Source: a virus
Lineage: Duplodnaviria; Caudoviricetes
Virus record (IMG/VR): IMGVR_UViG_3300005611_000128
Location: 1 to 32,330 of that record
Length of the DNA stretch: 32,330 nucleotides
Reading direction: 5' to 3' (one strand)
The position numbers were made by a program, and so were the translations under genes. The notes below the pieces were generated by a model. It had not been told where the DNA came from. It saw only the letters and a list, made by a program, of their open reading frames with translations, and made no database searches. Positions 7,020-32,330 of this stretch are shown here, in pieces (positions within the stretch are counted from its first letter, which is position 1; every line of letters begins with the position of its first letter).

Positions 7020-7835
7020 CTAACTTTTTGCTTCTTCTTGAGCGGCATAATGCAAATCCTGCCACAGCTTTTGAGCTTCCTTCCTAGCCTGCTCAGGAAT
7101 ACTCCTGTCAGTACCCAACAACTTCTTCAAAAATTCTTGGTCACCCTTCAATGATTGAATCTGCTCAGCAGCAGTCTTAGCACTACGAGGGGGCTGCTTA
7201 TTACTTGGACCAGCCGGGTTATCACCCATCATCTTCCCTGATACTTGAGATAAGAATTCAAGGCCGTCAGCTGTAGACATCAACTCCTTCAAGCCATTCT
7301 TAACACCCTCACTCTCAACCTTATCAAGTAATGACTTGGCTAAATTCTCAGCCTCACCCAACTTATCACCAAACTTAACCTGCTTCTGCTTTAAATACTC
7401 TGCTGCCTGCTGCTCAGCCGCCGCCTTCTGCTTATCAACATCAGACTTCGTTAAATCAAGAAATGTTTTCAATACCTTCTCAGCCTGCTTATTAGTTAAA
7501 TTAGCCTCATGCAAACTCTTAGTCACAGGCTGCAATATATCCTCAGGTAACTCATACTCTGGTAAATTAAAATCATACTTGTCAGGAGACTCCGGCTTAC
7601 CAATCTTCTGATAAAACTTCTCCCAACCCTCTGCGTCATCATCCTTTGGCAAACGATTAGAAGGGTCGCCAATCATCTTCTGGGCATCAATAAAAGACTT
7701 CATCAAAGTCCTTACATTATTAATAGGCTCCAAAGCCTTACCTTGACCATCTGGTAATGACATCGCCTTCTCTTTAATTGAACCAAAGTCAAAATCTTTA
7801 GTCGCTTCCTCTATCTCTAACCATATTTCATCCAT
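7020..7835 (-). CDS. Capsid scaffolding/assembly protein
   Basis: Charged helical protein with 'AQKMIG..RLPKDDDAEGWEKFYQKIGKPESPDKY'; immediately upstream of the capsid gene. Confidence 0.8.
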   Translation of the reverse strand: MDEIWLEIEEATKDFDFGSIKEKAMSLPDGQGKALEPINNVRTLMKSFIDAQKMIGDPSNRLPKDDDAEGWEKFYQKIGKPESPDKYDFNLPEYELPEDILQPVTKSLHEANLTNKQAEKVLKTFLDLTKSDVDKQKAAAEQQAAEYLKQKQVKFGDKLGEAENLAKSLLDKVESEGVKNGLKELMSTADGLEFLSQVSGKMMGDNPAGPSNKQPPRSAKTAAEQIQSLKGDQEFLKKLLGTDRSIPEQARKEAQKLWQDLHYAAQEEAKS

Positions 7836-8139: not shown

Positions 8140-9767
8140 ACACCTTGTGTTAATTGTAACGCTTGATTCAAATCTTTCAAGCCCCCAGCTGCATCTTTAA
8201 ATGATCCGGCATCAGCTTGATCCTGCTCTACTTGACGCTGCTCCGCTAACTGCTTCTTAACTACCTCTGGATCCTCTAATAAATTAGTATCCGCACCCGT
8301 AGCCTTGAACACATAAGGCGCAAGCTCTTCCTGCTTAATACCAGGAACCTGGACCGCTCCACTAGAAAACTGAGTTAAAATACCAGCCGCATTTTGTAAT
8401 GCTTGTAACCTAATACCCTGTTGAGCCTCATACATCGCAGTCGTAAACGCTACCTTTATCTCCTTTAAATCACTAGGAACGTCAATCTCACCAAAAGCAA
8501 TACCTGCCTCGTAAACAAACCTGATTATAGGCTCTACAAAATCTGTCTCCAAATTAGCAAATGGACCAGTAAACCTGCGCACACGATCTGTAAACCTAAT
8601 ATTACTCTCAGTTGCAGATTGCTCTGCATTCTTCCCATCCTCTAATAAATCATTGTAAAATGCCAATAAAATCTGATTGCGCTTACGATCCTGCATCTCA
8701 ACACCAATTGGTAAATTCTGAATCGTGTTCAATGGCTCCGGCTTAACAAACTGAGTACCAAACATCGCACGACTTAAATTAATATAGTTAATAGCAGCTG
8801 GGGATAAATCTAAATCATCTTCCATAATGTCATATGGCATTATCAACGGCGGAGTGATCATAACCTCAGCAGCAGCTAAATTCTTCTTCTCCATCAGATT
8901 CAAAGTTATAATATCCGGTAAAGCACGATGACCAGGTCCACGCCCATAATCCTCACCAGGACCCAATGTCCATGCAGGTGCCTGAAATGGCCAGTAGTCA
9001 AAACCTGACTCCTTCAATAACACCTTCTTATCATAGTCAAACCACAATGACGCATACTTCATCTCATTAGCGTTAAGAGTCTTAACCTTATAATCATCAC
9101 GCTCATAAACTACGTTGATAATCTTTGACTCCTCATTCGGATTAGTCTTAATCTTCTCATCTAATAAACGCCAGTACTGAGCATCTCCCTGACCACTAGA
9201 CTCTCCAGCAAACTCTCGCTTCAACTGAATAGGAGTCATGTAAACTTCACGGAAGAAATTTAATACCTCTCCATACTGATTACGCTGGAAATATACCTCC
9301 TGCTTAGGTAAAGCCGCAAACTTTACCAGCTTCTTCTTCATATCACGGTGCATCAAAAATGGTCCATCACCATAACCAACTACACTACGTAAAATGTTCC
9401 CAGACGCCTTCGCAAAACACGTATCAGGACGAGTTAAATGATCCGCTATCCAATTCTTCGCTCGCTTCAACGCATCAATATGCTGCTTACTCTTCGCCAA
9501 CTTTCCAGTAGGCACTAAATTAAACTTGTCCTCAATTGGACTTACCAACATTCCCAACAAAGAAGACGCTAAATCATCACACGCTCGCTCAGGTGTTCCA
9601 TCAAATAAATCAGTACGACTTACATTACCATCTCCCTCTCGACTCTGAAAAAACTTCGTTGATGACGGATTCAAATACTTATTCAAACGGTTAAACTGAT
9701 AATCATAATTCTGACGGACAGAAACTACATTATCAAAAATACTACACCACTCTAAAACTGCGTTCAT
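8136..9767 (-). CDS. Portal (head-to-tail connector) protein
   Basis: 543 aa with 'LFDGTPERACDDLASSL', 'GEDYGRGPG..ALPDI..LN' and 'SATE' motifs of T7/BPP-1-type portals. Confidence 0.92.
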   Translation of the reverse strand: MNAVLEWCSIFDNVVSVRQNYDYQFNRLNKYLNPSSTKFFQSREGDGNVSRTDLFDGTPERACDDLASSLLGMLVSPIEDKFNLVPTGKLAKSKQHIDALKRAKNWIADHLTRPDTCFAKASGNILRSVVGYGDGPFLMHRDMKKKLVKFAALPKQEVYFQRNQYGEVLNFFREVYMTPIQLKREFAGESSGQGDAQYWRLLDEKIKTNPNEESKIINVVYERDDYKVKTLNANEMKYASLWFDYDKKVLLKESGFDYWPFQAPAWTLGPGEDYGRGPGHRALPDIITLNLMEKKNLAAAEVMITPPLIMPYDIMEDDLDLSPAAINYINLSRAMFGTQFVKPEPLNTIQNLPIGVEMQDRKRNQILLAFYNDLLEDGKNAEQSATESNIRFTDRVRRFTGPFANLETDFVEPIIRFVYEAGIAFGEIDVPSDLKEIKVAFTTAMYEAQQGIRLQALQNAAGILTQFSSGAVQVPGIKQEELAPYVFKATGADTNLLEDPEVVKKQLAEQRQVEQDQADAGSFKDAAGGLKDLNQALQLTQGV

Positions 9768-13257: not shown

Positions 13258-13297
13258 TAGTTTTTAACTAGATCTTAGTTAATATATGCTAAGATCT
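13258..13297 (+). promoter_or_regulatory. Early promoter (TGcTAAGAT) with overlapping inverted repeats
   Basis: Inverted repeats AGATCTTAG-N10-CTAAGATCT and TTAACTA-N5-TAGTTAA. The 13-mer TAGTTTTTAACTA is shared with 24951. Confidence 0.5.
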
Positions 13298-13353
13298 GGG
13301 TATAGATTAAATACAAGGTTAATCAAGCGATTAATCAACCGGAGAAAAAAGAC

Positions 13354-13533
13354 ATGACAAACGCAAAAGAATTCATCACTAGAGTAATGACCCAGGTAGT
13401 AAACACAAGACCAGACATCGACGCTCAAACATTCTGGGACAATCACAAGGGACTAATGAGCGAAGCTATCCAATACTACGGGGACAATGTAGCAGAGGTA
13501 GCGGGACACATGATAGAGGTGGCTGGGTACTAA
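13354..13533 (+). CDS. Small early protein (59 aa)
   Basis: Not in the track. GGAG RBS; MTNAKEFITRVMTQVVNTRPDID...IEVAGY*. Confidence 0.7.
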   Translation: MTNAKEFITRVMTQVVNTRPDIDAQTFWDNHKGLMSEAIQYYGDNVAEVAGHMIEVAGY

Positions 13534-13539
13534 ACCCAG

Positions 13540-13612
13540 CTAAGCTCTAACCCTGGGCACTAGAGATAGTGCCTAGTCTAGAGCCTAGCGAGAGACTAGG
13601 TAACAATAGGAG
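13540..13612 (+). promoter_or_regulatory. Structured intergenic element, copy 1
   Basis: GCTCTA..CTGGGCACTA-GAGA-TAGTGCCTAG..TAGAGC hairpin, then CCTAGC-GAGA-GACTAGG, then TAACAATAGGAG. Confidence 0.6.
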
Positions 13613-13620
13613 ATAAAGGC

Positions 13621-13980
13621 ATGACAAAAGAAGAACTACTAAAGAAAATTCAATATTATAAGATCAAGGTAGATAAGTCAACTAAAGAGTTTATCAAGAC
13701 TAGACTTGTCGAGATATCTCATAGAGTCGATGATAACGGCTATTTTATTTATAACTTAAAAGAACTTACGCCGTATGGCAAAAGGGCTTATCAAGGGTCT
13801 AAAGTATTCTACGCTTATAAAGCGGTAATAGAAGCTATTACAAGCGCAAAAGAGCGGGGCAATGAATTAAGAGCAGAAGCTAGAGATATGAAAGCAAATC
13901 CAGGTGCTTATGCTTCAGACGAGGACTTAATGCAAATATTCAATACATTAGGTAAGACAACATTAGCAAAACAAGCCTAA
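13621..13980 (+). CDS. Hypothetical early protein
   Basis: 119 aa with AGGAG RBS. Confidence 0.7.
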   Translation: MTKEELLKKIQYYKIKVDKSTKEFIKTRLVEISHRVDDNGYFIYNLKELTPYGKRAYQGSKVFYAYKAVIEAITSAKERGNELRAEARDMKANPGAYASDEDLMQIFNTLGKTTLAKQA

Positions 13981-14052: not shown

Positions 14053-14532
14053 ATGACAAGAATATATCACGGGACCAATCACCCAGTAATAGAACCAAAT
14101 CCAGCTTATGATTATAACCGTATTGCTAACGGGCTAGGGTTCTACTGGACTACTAGCAAAGATGAAGCTTTAAGTTATGGCAAGAATTTATTTGAGCGCG
14201 AGGTAGCTGGTTATAATCTTATCTACAGTTCAATATTTAAAGACCCAGCTAGTAAAGCTACCGTTAGTAATTGGATTAAGCAAGCGCAAGAAGTTAATCC
14301 TGAACGCGTTATAACAGCCGCAAGCAATTTTGCCGAAGATTTTAATCAAGGCATTAATCTTTTGATTAAAGCAGTACATAGCGAGACAACTAAGCAGGAC
14401 CAATGGCTTGCATTCCAAAGTGAATTAATGTTGAGAGATACTAAAGCATGGAATGACATCGCCCAGGCAATAGGGATTGACGGAATAGTAATAGAACAAG
14501 AGCACGCAACACACTACGTGCTGTATAGGTAG
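14053..14532 (+). CDS. ADP-ribosyltransferase-fold protein (ART-PolyVal/DUF3990-like)
   Basis: 'IYHGT', 'GLGFYWTTSKDEALSYG' and 'GIDGIVI...HYVLY' motifs. Confidence 0.7.
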   Translation: MTRIYHGTNHPVIEPNPAYDYNRIANGLGFYWTTSKDEALSYGKNLFEREVAGYNLIYSSIFKDPASKATVSNWIKQAQEVNPERVITAASNFAEDFNQGINLLIKAVHSETTKQDQWLAFQSELMLRDTKAWNDIAQAIGIDGIVIEQEHATHYVLYR

Positions 14533-15317: not shown

Positions 15318-15387
15318 TCCTAATGGGTGGACATGGCGCAAAAATTCTGAGTAAAAGATTTCAGATCAGAAAAAAAGGAGAAATGAT

Positions 15388-15750
15388 ATGAAAAGAGAGA
15401 TAATAGTAATGGCAGTAATAGCGATAGGTGGTATTAAGGGAGCGCCAGCTAAGGCTAATATATTGGCAATTAATGAGATGAAGCAGGAATTAAGTAGTTT
15501 GACTGAGAAGTATTCAGATGCGAAGGTTAATTTAGCGAGGGCTAAGTCAGAGTATAAGAACTTGAAGAGTGCTCAGAAGGATTTAATCAAGTCGATTAAG
15601 TTAGCTGTCAAATCAGACGAGAGTAAGAAGCGAGCAGAGCAGGCATCAATCGAATCAGTTGGTTACAGCCATAAGCGCAACCCTTACCTTGCAGATATGA
15701 GCCATGCAGTAGGTCAGGCGAGTTTAACTGATAAGAGTTTGCAGTATTAG
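15388..15750 (+). CDS. Exported coiled-coil protein
   Basis: MKREIIVMAVIAIGGIKGAPAKA signal-like N-terminus ending in AxA, then a heptad-rich helix; AAGGAG RBS. Confidence 0.65.
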   Translation: MKREIIVMAVIAIGGIKGAPAKANILAINEMKQELSSLTEKYSDAKVNLARAKSEYKNLKSAQKDLIKSIKLAVKSDESKKRAEQASIESVGYSHKRNPYLADMSHAVGQASLTDKSLQY

Positions 15751-15834: not shown

Positions 15835-15850
15835 AGCAAAAGGAGAAAAA

Positions 15851-16261
15851 ATGATAAAGACAATAGAAGAGTTAAAACAAGCAATGGAAGATTGTCCAAG
15901 GTGTGGATCTTTGGGAAGTATCGACCATATATCTGAACCACAAATAATTAAATTACTAAACAATGGTCTCACCAATAGAGGGTGTTGCGCTATAAGTCAT
16001 ATTAACGACAATTTTAAAGCGGTAAGTATATTTAACGGTTATAAAGAAATGAGCAAAACGAAGTGGGAGATCCAAAATAGATTGCGCTTCATTGGCAGAG
16101 TTATTGGTAATGCTATCCGCGACAGGGAGCATGAACTTATTTATTCAAAAGACCAAGAATATTCTGACGAGGATATATATTCATCAGGCTTAAGCCTATT
16201 GTCCCGCATAGAGGAAAATCTGTTATTTTGTCACGAAATAATAGCAGAGTTATCGGAATAA
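15851..16261 (+). CDS. Hypothetical protein, possible Zn-binding (CPRC, CC..H)
   Basis: 136 aa with AAGGAG RBS. Confidence 0.65.
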   Translation: MIKTIEELKQAMEDCPRCGSLGSIDHISEPQIIKLLNNGLTNRGCCAISHINDNFKAVSIFNGYKEMSKTKWEIQNRLRFIGRVIGNAIRDREHELIYSKDQEYSDEDIYSSGLSLLSRIEENLLFCHEIIAELSE

Positions 16262-24501: not shown

Positions 24502-24728
24502 GCTATGGCTATGGCTATGGCTCTGGCTCTGGCTCTGGCTCTGGCGATGGCTCTGGCGATGGCTCTGGCTCTGGCTCTGGCTATGGCTATGGCTCTGGCT
24601 CTGGCTATGGCTCTGGCTATGGCTATGGCTCTGGCTATGGCGATGGCTCTGGCTATGGCGATGGCTCTGGCTCTGGCTATGGCGATGGCTCTGGCTCTGG
24701 CTATGGCGATGGCTCTGGCGATGGCTAA
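24486..24728 (+). CDS. (Gly-X)n low-complexity protein, X = Y/S/D
   Basis: MVSTL followed by 37 GX dipeptides and G; overlaps the end of the upstream gene; AAGGAG lies upstream of the ATG. Confidence 0.6.
   Translation: MVSTLGYGYGYGSGSGSGSGDGSGDGSGSGSGYGYGSGSGYGSGYGYGSGYGDGSGYGDGSGSGYGDGSGSGYGDGSGDG
24501..24728 (+). repeat. Hexamer tandem array using only GGCTAT/GGCTCT/GGCGAT, closed by GGCTAA
   Basis: 37 units plus an in-register stop unit. Confidence 0.95.
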
Positions 24729-24737
24729 ATAATAGTT

Positions 24738-24817
24738 ATGGCGCACACTCCTTTGTTTGTTCACCCTCACCAAGGATAGTCGTTTAGGGACATTCTGACT
24801 CCGTGCGCCACTTTTTT
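24738..24817 (+). ncRNA. Candidate small RNA 1 with anti-SD loop
   Basis: TGGCGCAC/GTGCGCCA closing stem, then C-T6; loop contains ACTCCTTT and CATTCTGACTCC. Confidence 0.45.
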
Positions 24818-24949
24818 ATGGAACTAGAAAGAACAGTACCAAGAATATTTATGTACACAGGCATGACCTTCCTTGGTATCCTGTTCGCTCCTGTAGTATT
24901 TAAGGGGCTAGCACCTAGGTCAGTAGTACGAAAACTACACCAACCTTAA
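24818..24949 (+). CDS. Small membrane protein (43 aa)
   Basis: MELERTVPRIFMYTGMTFLGILFAPVVFKGL...; no clear RBS. Confidence 0.35.
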   Translation: MELERTVPRIFMYTGMTFLGILFAPVVFKGLAPRSVVRKLHQP

Positions 24950-24950
24950 T

Positions 24951-24988
24951 TAGTTTTTAACTACTAGTTAATAAAACTATGATACAAT
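24951..24988 (+). promoter_or_regulatory. Extended -10 promoter with palindromic operator
   Basis: TAGTTTTTAACTA-C-TAGTTAATAAAACTA near-palindrome, then TGaTACAAT-5 nt-ATG. Confidence 0.55.
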
Positions 24989-24993
24989 AAACC

Positions 24994-25188
24994 ATGATGA
25001 AAGCAAAATTACAAACATATAGTATGTATCCTGATACTATCCAGCAGATAAGCGACATTGTCGAGTTCAAAAAAGACCCTAGTTATAAGAAATCTAAGGT
25101 AATTAGAGAGGCTGTAGAGGCCTTCTGGTTGCGTTGTAAGTCTGAGTTGAATGACAAGCGTCATGAGGAGGGTGCATTGAATGAATGA
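24994..25188 (+). CDS. Ribbon-helix-helix (CopG-like) regulator
   Basis: Strand 'LQTYSMYP', a helix, then 'KSKVIREAVEAF'. Confidence 0.65.
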   Translation: MMKAKLQTYSMYPDTIQQISDIVEFKKDPSYKKSKVIREAVEAFWLRCKSELNDKRHEEGALNE

Positions 25189-25396
25189 GAGATTAGTGAT
25201 TGATCCTCGTGGTGAGGAAAATCTAAAGAAGAAAGTCGAAGAACTAACCAAGCAGGTAAAGAAGATGGAGCATGTTTTATTCCAGCTAGGTGGTGGGCTA
25301 ATTGAAGTCAACCAAAAGTTCGAGGCTAATATCAAGGACATAGCAAAGATATGGACGAAACTAAAAGCAGCAGAGGAGATCAAAGATGATAACTAA
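25181..25396 (+). CDS. Hypothetical coiled-coil protein
   Basis: 71 aa, coupled to the upstream gene. Confidence 0.55.
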   Translation: MNERLVIDPRGEENLKKKVEELTKQVKKMEHVLFQLGGGLIEVNQKFEANIKDIAKIWTKLKAAEEIKDDN

Positions 25397-25496
25397 GATA
25401 GCAATAGGGCTACTCGGACTAGTCGGTTTAATTACCTTACTATTGGTCTGGGTTAATACCCCAGAGAAGAAAGGGGTGGACGAATGGTGGTCATGA
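25386..25496 (+). CDS. Small membrane peptide (36 aa)
   Basis: MITKIAIGLLGLVGLITLLLVWVNTPEKKGVDEWWS; GAGGAG RBS. Confidence 0.55.
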   Translation: MITKIAIGLLGLVGLITLLLVWVNTPEKKGVDEWWS

Positions 25497-25717
25497 ATCA
25501 AAATCAGCAAAACACTTTAAGGCTTGCTGTACTTGGTGGAGATATTACAAGATCAGACCTTGTTAATTTTTTAAATGTAAATAGGTCTACAGCATGGGGC
25601 TTATTATCAAGGCTCATGGGCGAGAATTTTTTACAAAGGATGGGCGAGGGAACCAAAACTCGCTATGTGGCAACCAAAAAAGGTTGCGATTACTATTTGC
25701 AAAATATAAATAAATAG
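25493..25717 (+). CDS. Winged helix-turn-helix protein
   Basis: 'ITRSDLVNFLNVNRSTAWGLLSRLMGENFLQRMGEGTKTRY'. Confidence 0.75.
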   Translation: MNQNQQNTLRLAVLGGDITRSDLVNFLNVNRSTAWGLLSRLMGENFLQRMGEGTKTRYVATKKGCDYYLQNINK

Positions 25718-25729
25718 TATACTAAAGTT

Positions 25730-25792
25730 ATGCCCAGGTTCCTTTTCATGTCGAGATTCTCCTTTTACCTCTTCTACCTGGGCACTTTTTTT
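25730..25792 (+). ncRNA. Candidate small RNA 2 with anti-SD/anti-AUG loop
   Basis: TATACT ends 6 nt upstream; TGCCCAGGT/ACCTGGGCA stem, then C-T7; loop contains CTTTTCATGTC-GAGA-TTCTCCTTTT. Confidence 0.55.
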
Positions 25793-25800
25793 AATTTAAT

Positions 25801-25856
25801 ACGGGACACAACGAGGGAGTCTGGAGGCTCCCTCGGGGGGATTCTTGTATGCCCGT
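25801..25856 (+). other. GC-rich bulged hairpin
   Basis: CGAGGGAGTC-TGGA-GGCTCCCTCG inside ACGGG...CCCGT. Confidence 0.45.
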
Positions 25857-25892
25857 GATTATTATGTAACATATAGGAATTAAGGCTCGGTT

Positions 25893-26099
25893 ATGGATAC
25901 AATAAAAATACAAGATATTCAATTAGGCAAGTGGTACAAGGTACTAATTGGATTTGCTACCAAGCCAGATATACGCTCTGGTTACTGTGTTCGGGGCATG
26001 TTAAAAAGTGGAGACAGGGTCCAAGTAATGGGCGAGTATGGCACTATAGAAAACACTGAGAGTTATATCAACTACATCAATTCGGTGGTTAAGGATTGA
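25893..26099 (+). CDS. Hypothetical protein
   Basis: 68 aa. Confidence 0.5.
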   Translation: MDTIKIQDIQLGKWYKVLIGFATKPDIRSGYCVRGMLKSGDRVQVMGEYGTIENTESYINYINSVVKD

Positions 26100-26114
26100 T
26101 TGTATAATGGATTT

Positions 26115-32275: not shown

Positions 32276-32330
32276 ATCTCGTATGCCGTCTTCTGCTTGA
32301 AAAAAAACAAAAAAACAAAAGACCACACAC
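32276..32330 (+). other. Illumina P7 adapter plus low-quality A-rich tail (artefact)
   Basis: ATCTCGTATGCCGTCTTCTGCTTG at 32276-32299, followed by poly-A. Confidence 0.97.

Follow-up and report, generated by a model that had tools for sequence, protein, structure and literature searches.

A phage small-RNA candidate whose terminator loop mirrors the start site of a distant gene

The phage and its gene map

The window analysed here comprises 32,330 nucleotides and is the whole record of an uncultured phage (IMGVR_UViG_3300005611_000128, 32.3 kb). A leftward virion arm carries a T7-type head-tail connector, Phage_capsid_2 and Bbp19. The rightward arm harbors early and replication genes (RuvC, Arc-like, DnaB, AAA_24), and the tail and lysis-side genes include DUF1353 and peptidase M15. 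No integrase was found among the 52 scanned proteins of the window, and no prophage in genome contigs. The nearest named phages show capsid identities of 28% or less. The closest capsid group (86%) includes two long contigs, G001 and G002, which both end before the RNA region described below. Relatives were collected with a capsid anchor (27 loci) and a DUF1353 anchor (14 loci), a set that was later extended; winged-helix and AAA anchors returned no close relatives with DNA.

Seven genes of the window look leaderless, with a -10 box 5-6 nt before the ATG (12775, 17201, 24994, 26115 and 26538 on the plus strand, 12301 and 10075 on the minus strand), and many late genes of relatives have the same appearance. 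A common operator-like imperfect palindrome occurs at 13258-13290 and 24951-24980, 5′ of 13354, which is the first SD-led early gene, and 5′ of the leaderless gene 24994. The product of the latter may be a small DNA-binding protein that regulates both genes. An early gene at 14053-14532 displays weak similarity, below cut-off, to ADP-ribosyltransferase-like ART-PolyVal/DUF3990 domains. The contig end (~32290-32330) translates to FFFKQKTAYEI, which we take to be sequencing-adapter carry-over; the start of the terminal ORF is therefore unreliable.

Architecture of RNA2

A candidate RNA gene, RNA2, is located on the lysis side of the window (Table 1). Its -10 box TATACT (25718-25723) is followed after 6 nt by A25730, a 9-bp clamp (25731-39/25776-84) closes a pyrimidine-rich loop (25740-75), and T7 lies at 25786-92. 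An earlier note on this DNA had proposed all of these elements, and every coordinate proved correct, with a total length of 63 nt.

Table 1. Coordinates of the features discussed in the text, in the window and in loci of related phages (L numbers)
Feature	Position	Strand	Remarks
Start of gene 13354, possible secondary target	13341..13357	+	rank 4/58, -18.3
Start of gene 13621, possible secondary target	13606..13631	+	rank 2/58, -23.0; overlooked by the earlier note
Predicted main target	15373..15395	+	gene 15388 from the SD through spacer and AUG into the first codons
Gene 15388	15388..15750	+	120 aa; signal-peptide-like N-terminus and one 70-residue helix
RNA1	24739..24817	+	second clamp (8 bp), 56-nt loop, T6; just behind a stop codon
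Winged-helix (MarR-like) small gene	25484..25717	+	directly 5′ of RNA2; Pfam E 1e-4 to 8e-4, below cut-off
18-codon ORF	25693..25749	-	opened by the mirror of the RNA2 loop; overlooked by the earlier note
Promoter-like site	25696..25723	+	weak -35 TTTGCA, 16 nt, -10 TATACT right behind the winged-helix stop codon; 9/12
RNA2	25730..25792	+	predicted 63-nt RNA; whole molecule is one terminator-like clamp, 36-nt loop and U7
Anti-AUG seed	25742..25753	+	12 bp with 15384-15395, 2 G-U
Anti-SD seed	25757..25766	+	10 bp, exact complement of 15373-15382
Strong hairpin	25797..25862	+	directly 3′ of RNA2; 25797-25850, -26.9 kcal/mol, z -4.8
~85-nt RNA family, undescribed	L058:7637-7734		minus strand
	L063:7440-7538, L069:2742-2836, L072:2958-3050, L074:2242-2341, L079, L080, L081, L082		
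Distant members of this family	L064:7705-7800, L066:3898-4001		
	L071:11742-11836		minus strand
C-rich-loop hairpin	L058 ~7740-7770, L064 ~8545-8572		minus strand
	L063 ~7405-7435, L066:3559-3592, L071:7056-7100		
G013 linker / sigma gene start	L066:3945-3960 / L065:6615-6628		complementary, 14 bp

The predicted fold of RNA2 reaches -16.7 kcal/mol (z -4.17), a stability equalled by none of 200 shuffles, and leaves both seed stretches mostly unpaired. Elements which combine a clamp, a long loop and a T-tract occur twice in the window (RNA2 and RNA1) and not once in any of five dinucleotide shuffles. The architecture of RNA2 is non-random. Rfam 15 covariance models gave no match in the window at E<=1. 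Altogether, RNA2 is a real element, non-coding and probably functional.

Promoter-like sites as a class are not in excess over shuffles in the window (39 versus 39.7). The spacing of the RNA2 -10 box, 6 nt and ATG is the same as in the leaderless genes 12775, 17201, 26115, 12062 and 9764, and 8 of the 21 -10/ATG sites of this geometry are gene starts or RNA2. RNA2 itself opens with a leaderless-type AUG, a feature which the earlier note had overlooked. This AUG could begin a Phe-rich upstream ORF (25730-25858, 42 codons, without a stop before the U tract) whose translation would melt the terminator and allow read-through into the lysis-side genes. The exact 6-nt distance to the -10 box speaks for such a reading, as does the AUG with which several RNAs of the G004 type (see below) likewise start. 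However, two letters of this AUG, U and G, form clamp pairs, any pyrimidine tract encodes Phe, Ser and Leu, relatives lose the AUG or carry frame-shifting indels, and 26115 possesses its own -10 box. We regard this possibility as very improbable.

The loop as a mirror of a start site

Read on the reverse strand, the RNA2 loop consists of a strong SD, 9 nt and ATG. Eleven AAGGAG-N4-10-ATG sites were counted: nine are gene starts and one is intragenic. The eleventh mirrors the RNA2 loop and is the sole site of this kind outside the coding strands (35 kb of non-sense sequence). The same count with AGGAG gave 23 gene starts, 4 intragenic sites and 3 in non-sense sequence. The loop would therefore be made for pairing with a start site, or it is itself a start on the minus strand.

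The second option corresponds to a cis-antisense arrangement resembling type I toxin-antitoxin systems. A minus-strand mRNA would encode an 18-aa hydrophobic peptide (25749-25693) with RNA2 as the overlapping antitoxin, and the match to gene 15388 described below would merely reflect a common AGGAGAA..AUGAAAAG start style. RNA2, as an antisense RNA, overlaps the SD/AUG of a short ORF, as expected of type I systems, and this SD-9 nt-ATG is perfect. A promoter-like site (26071-26043, 10/12) lies on the minus strand, a structured leader is present, and a hairpin is situated just behind the stop of the 18-codon ORF. Furthermore, 10% of mirrored real starts match some window gene equally well. According to the available part of PMC8309996, type I toxins are hydrophobic peptides of less than 60 aa and their antitoxins are mostly encoded in cis; the resemblance extends to a terminator-ended RNA of ~60 nt that overlaps the beginning of a small hydrophobic reading frame on the opposite strand. 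In contrast to the systems covered there, the hydropathy of the peptide (0.84) is at background, close to that of two chance antisense mini-ORFs (0.74 and 0.77), and on the minus strand no U tract accompanies the hairpin behind the ORF, so that a U-tract terminator is missing. Moreover, the ORF has to cross the -10 box and an A-rich stretch. The peptide is too short for protein searches, and comparable elements show no counterpart of it: the mirror frames are 8 aa (RNA1), 3 aa (G011) and 22 aa (G013) long and share no common peptide, and several G004-type members miss the mirror AUG. We consider the cis-antisense arrangement unlikely.

Predicted pairing with the start of gene 15388

The two seeds of RNA2 are predicted to pair with the start of gene 15388, about 10 kb away. 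The earlier note had reported 21 bp, composed of 25742-52 with 15385-95 (one G-U) and 25757-66 with 15373-82. This is correct, and an additional G-U raises the number to 22 bp (12+10), which flank a small internal loop. RNA2 shares with trans-acting, RBS-blocking sRNAs of the Yfr1/6C-like mode a largely unpaired seed that matches the SD and AUG of a gene far away.

A ranking against shuffled controls, proposed by the earlier note as a check, places 15388 at the top but leaves its chance expectation borderline. The start of 15388 ranks first among 58 own starts and among 652 pooled starts from 19 phage records (-26.9 kcal/mol). Among six starts of the target family, RNA2 binds its own 15388 best (-26.9 versus -19.0 or weaker). 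With 15388 alone as the target, RNA2 is equalled by 0 of 745 and 0 of 150 controls. The fair null, however, is the best of all own starts (56-58). Under this null, 14/300 shuffles equal the base-pair count, as do 4/56 real starts in mirror form; the plain duplex energy is equalled by 60/300 and 13/56, and the energy with accessibility by 3/60 shuffles. Natural sequences equal RNA2 in 17/150 cases (pyrimidine-rich 36-mers) and 15/150 cases (mirrored AGGAG starts of relatives). Taken alone, the RNA2-15388 match is borderline (p about 0.05-0.11), and the window by itself cannot prove that 15388 is the target.

Other starts in the window

Two further starts, those of 13621 and 13354, are possible secondary targets (Table 1). 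The partial matches which the earlier note lists at 13341 and near 15838 and 16261 are present (the last at 16260), but 15851 and 16276 reach no better than ranks 11 and 17 among the 58 starts. Gene 17201 was rejected as a target: its 16-bp helix contains 5 G-U pairs, lies mostly 5′ of the leaderless AUG and ranks 28th with accessibility.

A wider role would be general anti-SD repression of numerous phage and host mRNAs, with leaderless ones spared. The top five own starts all carry GGAG-type SDs, leaderless genes rank 28th-58th, and in the relative G013 the loop of the corresponding RNA matches several own early starts (6 in the top 20, p 0.008). A precedent is the 6C RNA, which acts on many targets via C-rich loops (PMC6486639, in the part available). 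Against this, the anti-SD comprises just 10 nt and is A-U rich, and own starts are not enriched in the RNA2 top 20 (3/20, p 0.26). A blanket silencing of AGGAG-led mRNAs, as formerly claimed, finds no support: the capsid gene ranks 30th, and others take ranks 37, 38, 43 and 44 of 58. Because many AGGAG-led genes rank so low, the specificity of RNA2 rests on its AUG-side seed. The claimed escape of leaderless mRNAs stands as far as their ranks go, but these low ranks are a consequence of having no SD. Broad repression thus appears quite unlikely. Finally, RNA1 has no target above shuffles among the starts examined (38/150; 14/60), which deprives the suggested RNA1/RNA2 switch of support.

The product of gene 15388 and its family

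A structure prediction for the 15388 protein (mean pLDDT 74) comprises a signal-peptide-like helix and the 70-residue helix, and the product is a putative secreted coiled-coil protein. No named family was found for it, and atlas and fold searches returned nothing meaningful for a single long helix. The gene has 8 close relatives and distant homologues in five phages. The protein P0125 is about 70% identical to 15388, and P0130-P0132 of the same cluster are encoded on JGI contigs of 35-44 kb. The G017 homologue is connected by hhalign with 93.7% (E 2e-7), those of G022, G025 and G004 with E values of 1.6e-6, 0.008 and 0.1, and the G016 homologue is linked to that of G004 at 91%. No member of the family was found in viral contigs, genome contigs, phage records or 15 capsid relatives, a metagenome scan returned just two copies of the window's own phage, and the complete phage G013 has no detectable homologue. 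Two candidates were discarded. L074:523 of G020 (E 0.11) belongs to another family and was removed before the target-family counts; the G013 gene L051:1739 has a similar outline and is not homologous (0.5%).

The distant homologues adjoin a lysozyme gene or sit a few genes from it. By analogy with RI and Spackle of phage T4, and from the lysozyme neighbours, one may speculate about a role of the 15388 protein in lysis timing or exclusion.

RNAs of related phages

DNA searches of viral contigs, phage records and a metagenome scan reached no sequence homologue of RNA2. A clamp pattern search in viral contigs yielded 16 loci, none like the window, and BLAST of window 24700-26100 against phage records gave chance matches only. 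Near the lysis genes of relatives, a -10 box precedes a predicted RNA built of a 5′ hairpin, a linker rich in U and C, and a terminator whose loop is U-rich and 14-16 nt long (the ~85-nt family of Table 1). Nine records form one hairpin-linker-terminator family (G004, G010, G016, G018, G020 and G022-G025), the G004 type, whose model was built from 8 sequences. The best matches of this model outside the family in 531 kb are G011 and G017 (E 0.012 and 0.015); G013 follows with E 0.6. RNA2 and RNA1 are not matched at E<=10 with filters off, and RNA2 is therefore an analogue rather than a member. Compensatory pairs in the terminator stem of the G004-type alignment number 0/12. In five loci of relatives, Rfam detected just tRNA and two sub-threshold matches.

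RNA2 and the RNAs of G011 and G017 all lie directly behind a winged-helix gene. This slot harbors a -10-led ncRNA in relatives: the seed RNA in G011 and G017, a tRNA-like element and tRNA-Tyr in G010, and tRNA-Tyr in G004. G004 and G010, with tRNA genes in the slot, have their seed RNA in convergent orientation. The winged-helix protein of the window weakly resembles the C-terminal half of the protein encoded next to the slot in relatives (BLASTP E 2e-4, hhalign probability 1.8%).

The RNA linker of G013 is complementary, over 14 bp, to the region of the AUG of the phage's own sigma-70-family gene, which ranks 1/652 (-16.1 versus -12.9). The whole 5′ segment of this RNA does not beat shuffles (43/60). 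The best family of the sigma factor is a cyanobacterial RpoD model, below cut-off.

The same predicted target family in relatives

Relatives offer an out-of-sample test, since the target family was fixed beforehand from the window. The test used the own RNA (linker plus loop) of G017, G022, G025, G004 and G016; G010, G011, G013, G018, G019, G021, G023 and G024 were left out, as no homologue start was available for them. Across the five phages the own RNA ranks the own 15388 homologue 1/52, 1/59, 2/60, 8/58 and 7/59. The 15388 family comes first of the 18 families common to four G004-type phages, which are not mutually independent.

Single segments are equalled in energy by 1-8/100, 1/60 and 2/47 shuffles. 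Ranks are weaker than energies (1-27/100, 8/60 and 6/47); the G017 rank is equalled by 27/100 shuffles, and the null for the G025 linker consists of 47 shuffles. Across the four G004-type genomes, none of 115 dinucleotide shuffles matches the G022 RNA, and the mean rank of the own RNAs is reached by 11/115. Shuffled RNAs also rank the target-family starts high (median top 9%), so these starts are sticky.

One compensatory RNA-target pair distinguishes G004 and G016. The cross matrix is not diagonal in the G004 group: the linkers of G004 and G022 bind the G016 target better than G016's own, and the own RNA of G025 does worse than the G022 RNA. In a contiguous-seed test, G004 and G010 fail (130/150 and 150/150). 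Seed boundaries were picked by eye. The seed of G011 mirrors the start of the G017 homologue without a mismatch over 15 nt, and G017's own seed needs a 1-nt bulge. The out-of-sample evidence is consistent and of moderate strength. The earlier proposal of a stand-alone anti-SD/anti-AUG RNA gene whose best target is 15388 is backed by the high ranks of the target family in five relatives.

These results also bear on a simpler idea, namely that RNA2 is the ordinary intrinsic terminator of the winged-helix operon, with a large U/C-rich loop that matches purine-rich starts by composition. The distance of RNA1 and RNA2 from the stop codon before them is 10-13 nt, an equal best-of-58 match is reached by about 10% of pyrimidine-rich 36-mers from natural sequence, promoter-like sites show no excess, and the G004-type hairpins could end convergent transcripts as well. 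However, termination needs no 36-nt loop, and the mirror start sits exactly in this loop. In addition, the 9 aligned RNAs of relatives keep the -10 box unchanged, and the target family ranks first in relatives. We rate a plain terminator as improbable. A hybrid is possible, with the loop acting as part of the upstream mRNA, at its 3′ end.

G016 and G017, phages with another capsid type, have this RNA, the 15388 homologue and the early/lysis module in common. RNA and predicted target thus seem to move as one module.

Proposed mechanism

On balance, we lean slightly towards RNA2 being a trans-acting RNA that blocks translation of the predicted secreted coiled-coil protein 15388, the most probable of the mechanisms considered. 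RNA2 would turn down 15388 as a small RNA, because its loop mirrors the 15388 ribosome site and the RNAs of relatives are predicted to pair with the same family. RNA polymerase would start at A25730 from the -10 box and stop at the U tract; alternatively, RNA2 might originate as the 3′ end of the winged-helix mRNA. The clamp stem could guard the ends and hold open the 36-nt loop. One seed would then take the SD in trans, and the other the AUG and first codons. Loading of the 30S subunit would be blocked, with less of the putative secreted protein as the result, and weaker pairing with 13621 and 13354 may occur. A 22-bp duplex within a closed 36-nt loop may require clamp opening. Action late in infection is only suggested, by the position beside lysis-side genes and by a promoter geometry common to late leaderless genes and some early ones.

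A wider model, which we put forward with considerable doubt, concerns a podovirus clade. A replaceable small-RNA slot beside the lysis genes would serve as an RNA-level early-to-late switch. Convergence of unrelated RNAs (RNA2, the G004 type and the G011/G017 type) would have led to one common target, the start of the gene which encodes the secreted coiled-coil protein next to lysozyme. Its product could be an inhibitor of lysis or superinfection and would be removed late. In one member the RNA would also silence the phage's own sigma factor.

Comparison with known systems

P1 C4 and P4 CI are small RNAs of phages which act on phage mRNAs. The review PMC12197685, in the part covered, adds sar, OOP, aQ, sas, 24B_1, VpdS and PreS, some of which act at translation initiation (sar on ant). 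They are mostly cis-antisense or Hfq-bound and stem from temperate enterobacterial or Vibrio phages. In contrast to these, RNA2 is predicted to act in trans on the gene of a secreted coiled-coil protein 10 kb off, with a single-stem scaffold, and unrelated RNA sequences point to one gene family.

Outside phages, cyanobacterial Yfr1 is similar (PMC2796815, in the part available): it is short, and an unpaired stretch containing UCCU pairs with a ribosome-binding site and inhibits translation, as predicted for RNA2. The hairpin-linker-terminator layout of Yfr1 is also found in the RNAs of relatives. However, RNA2 lacks the ultraconserved 11-nt Yfr1 motif and any Rfam match, and has a single stem instead of the two stem-loops which flank this motif. 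It is phage-encoded, carries its seed within the terminator loop, covers the AUG too, and its predicted target is a phage gene. Mycobacterial 6C/B11 RNA likewise pairs via loops on stems, reported for 6C to occur without Hfq (PMC6486639, same part as above). Its loops are C-rich and its many targets belong to the host, whereas RNA2 has one U-rich 36-nt loop, a two-part seed and no Rfam match. No description of RNA2 or of the phage clade was found in the literature, a search mainly of openly accessible papers in which PMC12197685 was partly covered.

If the proposal is true, a trans-acting RNA pared down to a terminator and a bipartite anti-SD/anti-AUG loop would represent translational shut-off in minimal form. 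Should unrelated RNAs indeed hit a conserved target, phages would time expression at the RNA level in more cases than are on record. The RNA2-15388 pair offers a first handle on an unnamed protein family and is directly testable.

Other small elements near the lysis genes

Two additional elements recur in relatives. A tRNA-like element that ARAGORN does not call has a TATAAT of its own and lies directly behind the winged-helix gene (L063:7690-7800, minus strand; also L072, L074, L079 and L080). A second small hairpin, with a C-rich 13-15-nt loop and a U tract, recurs near the lysis genes (Table 1).
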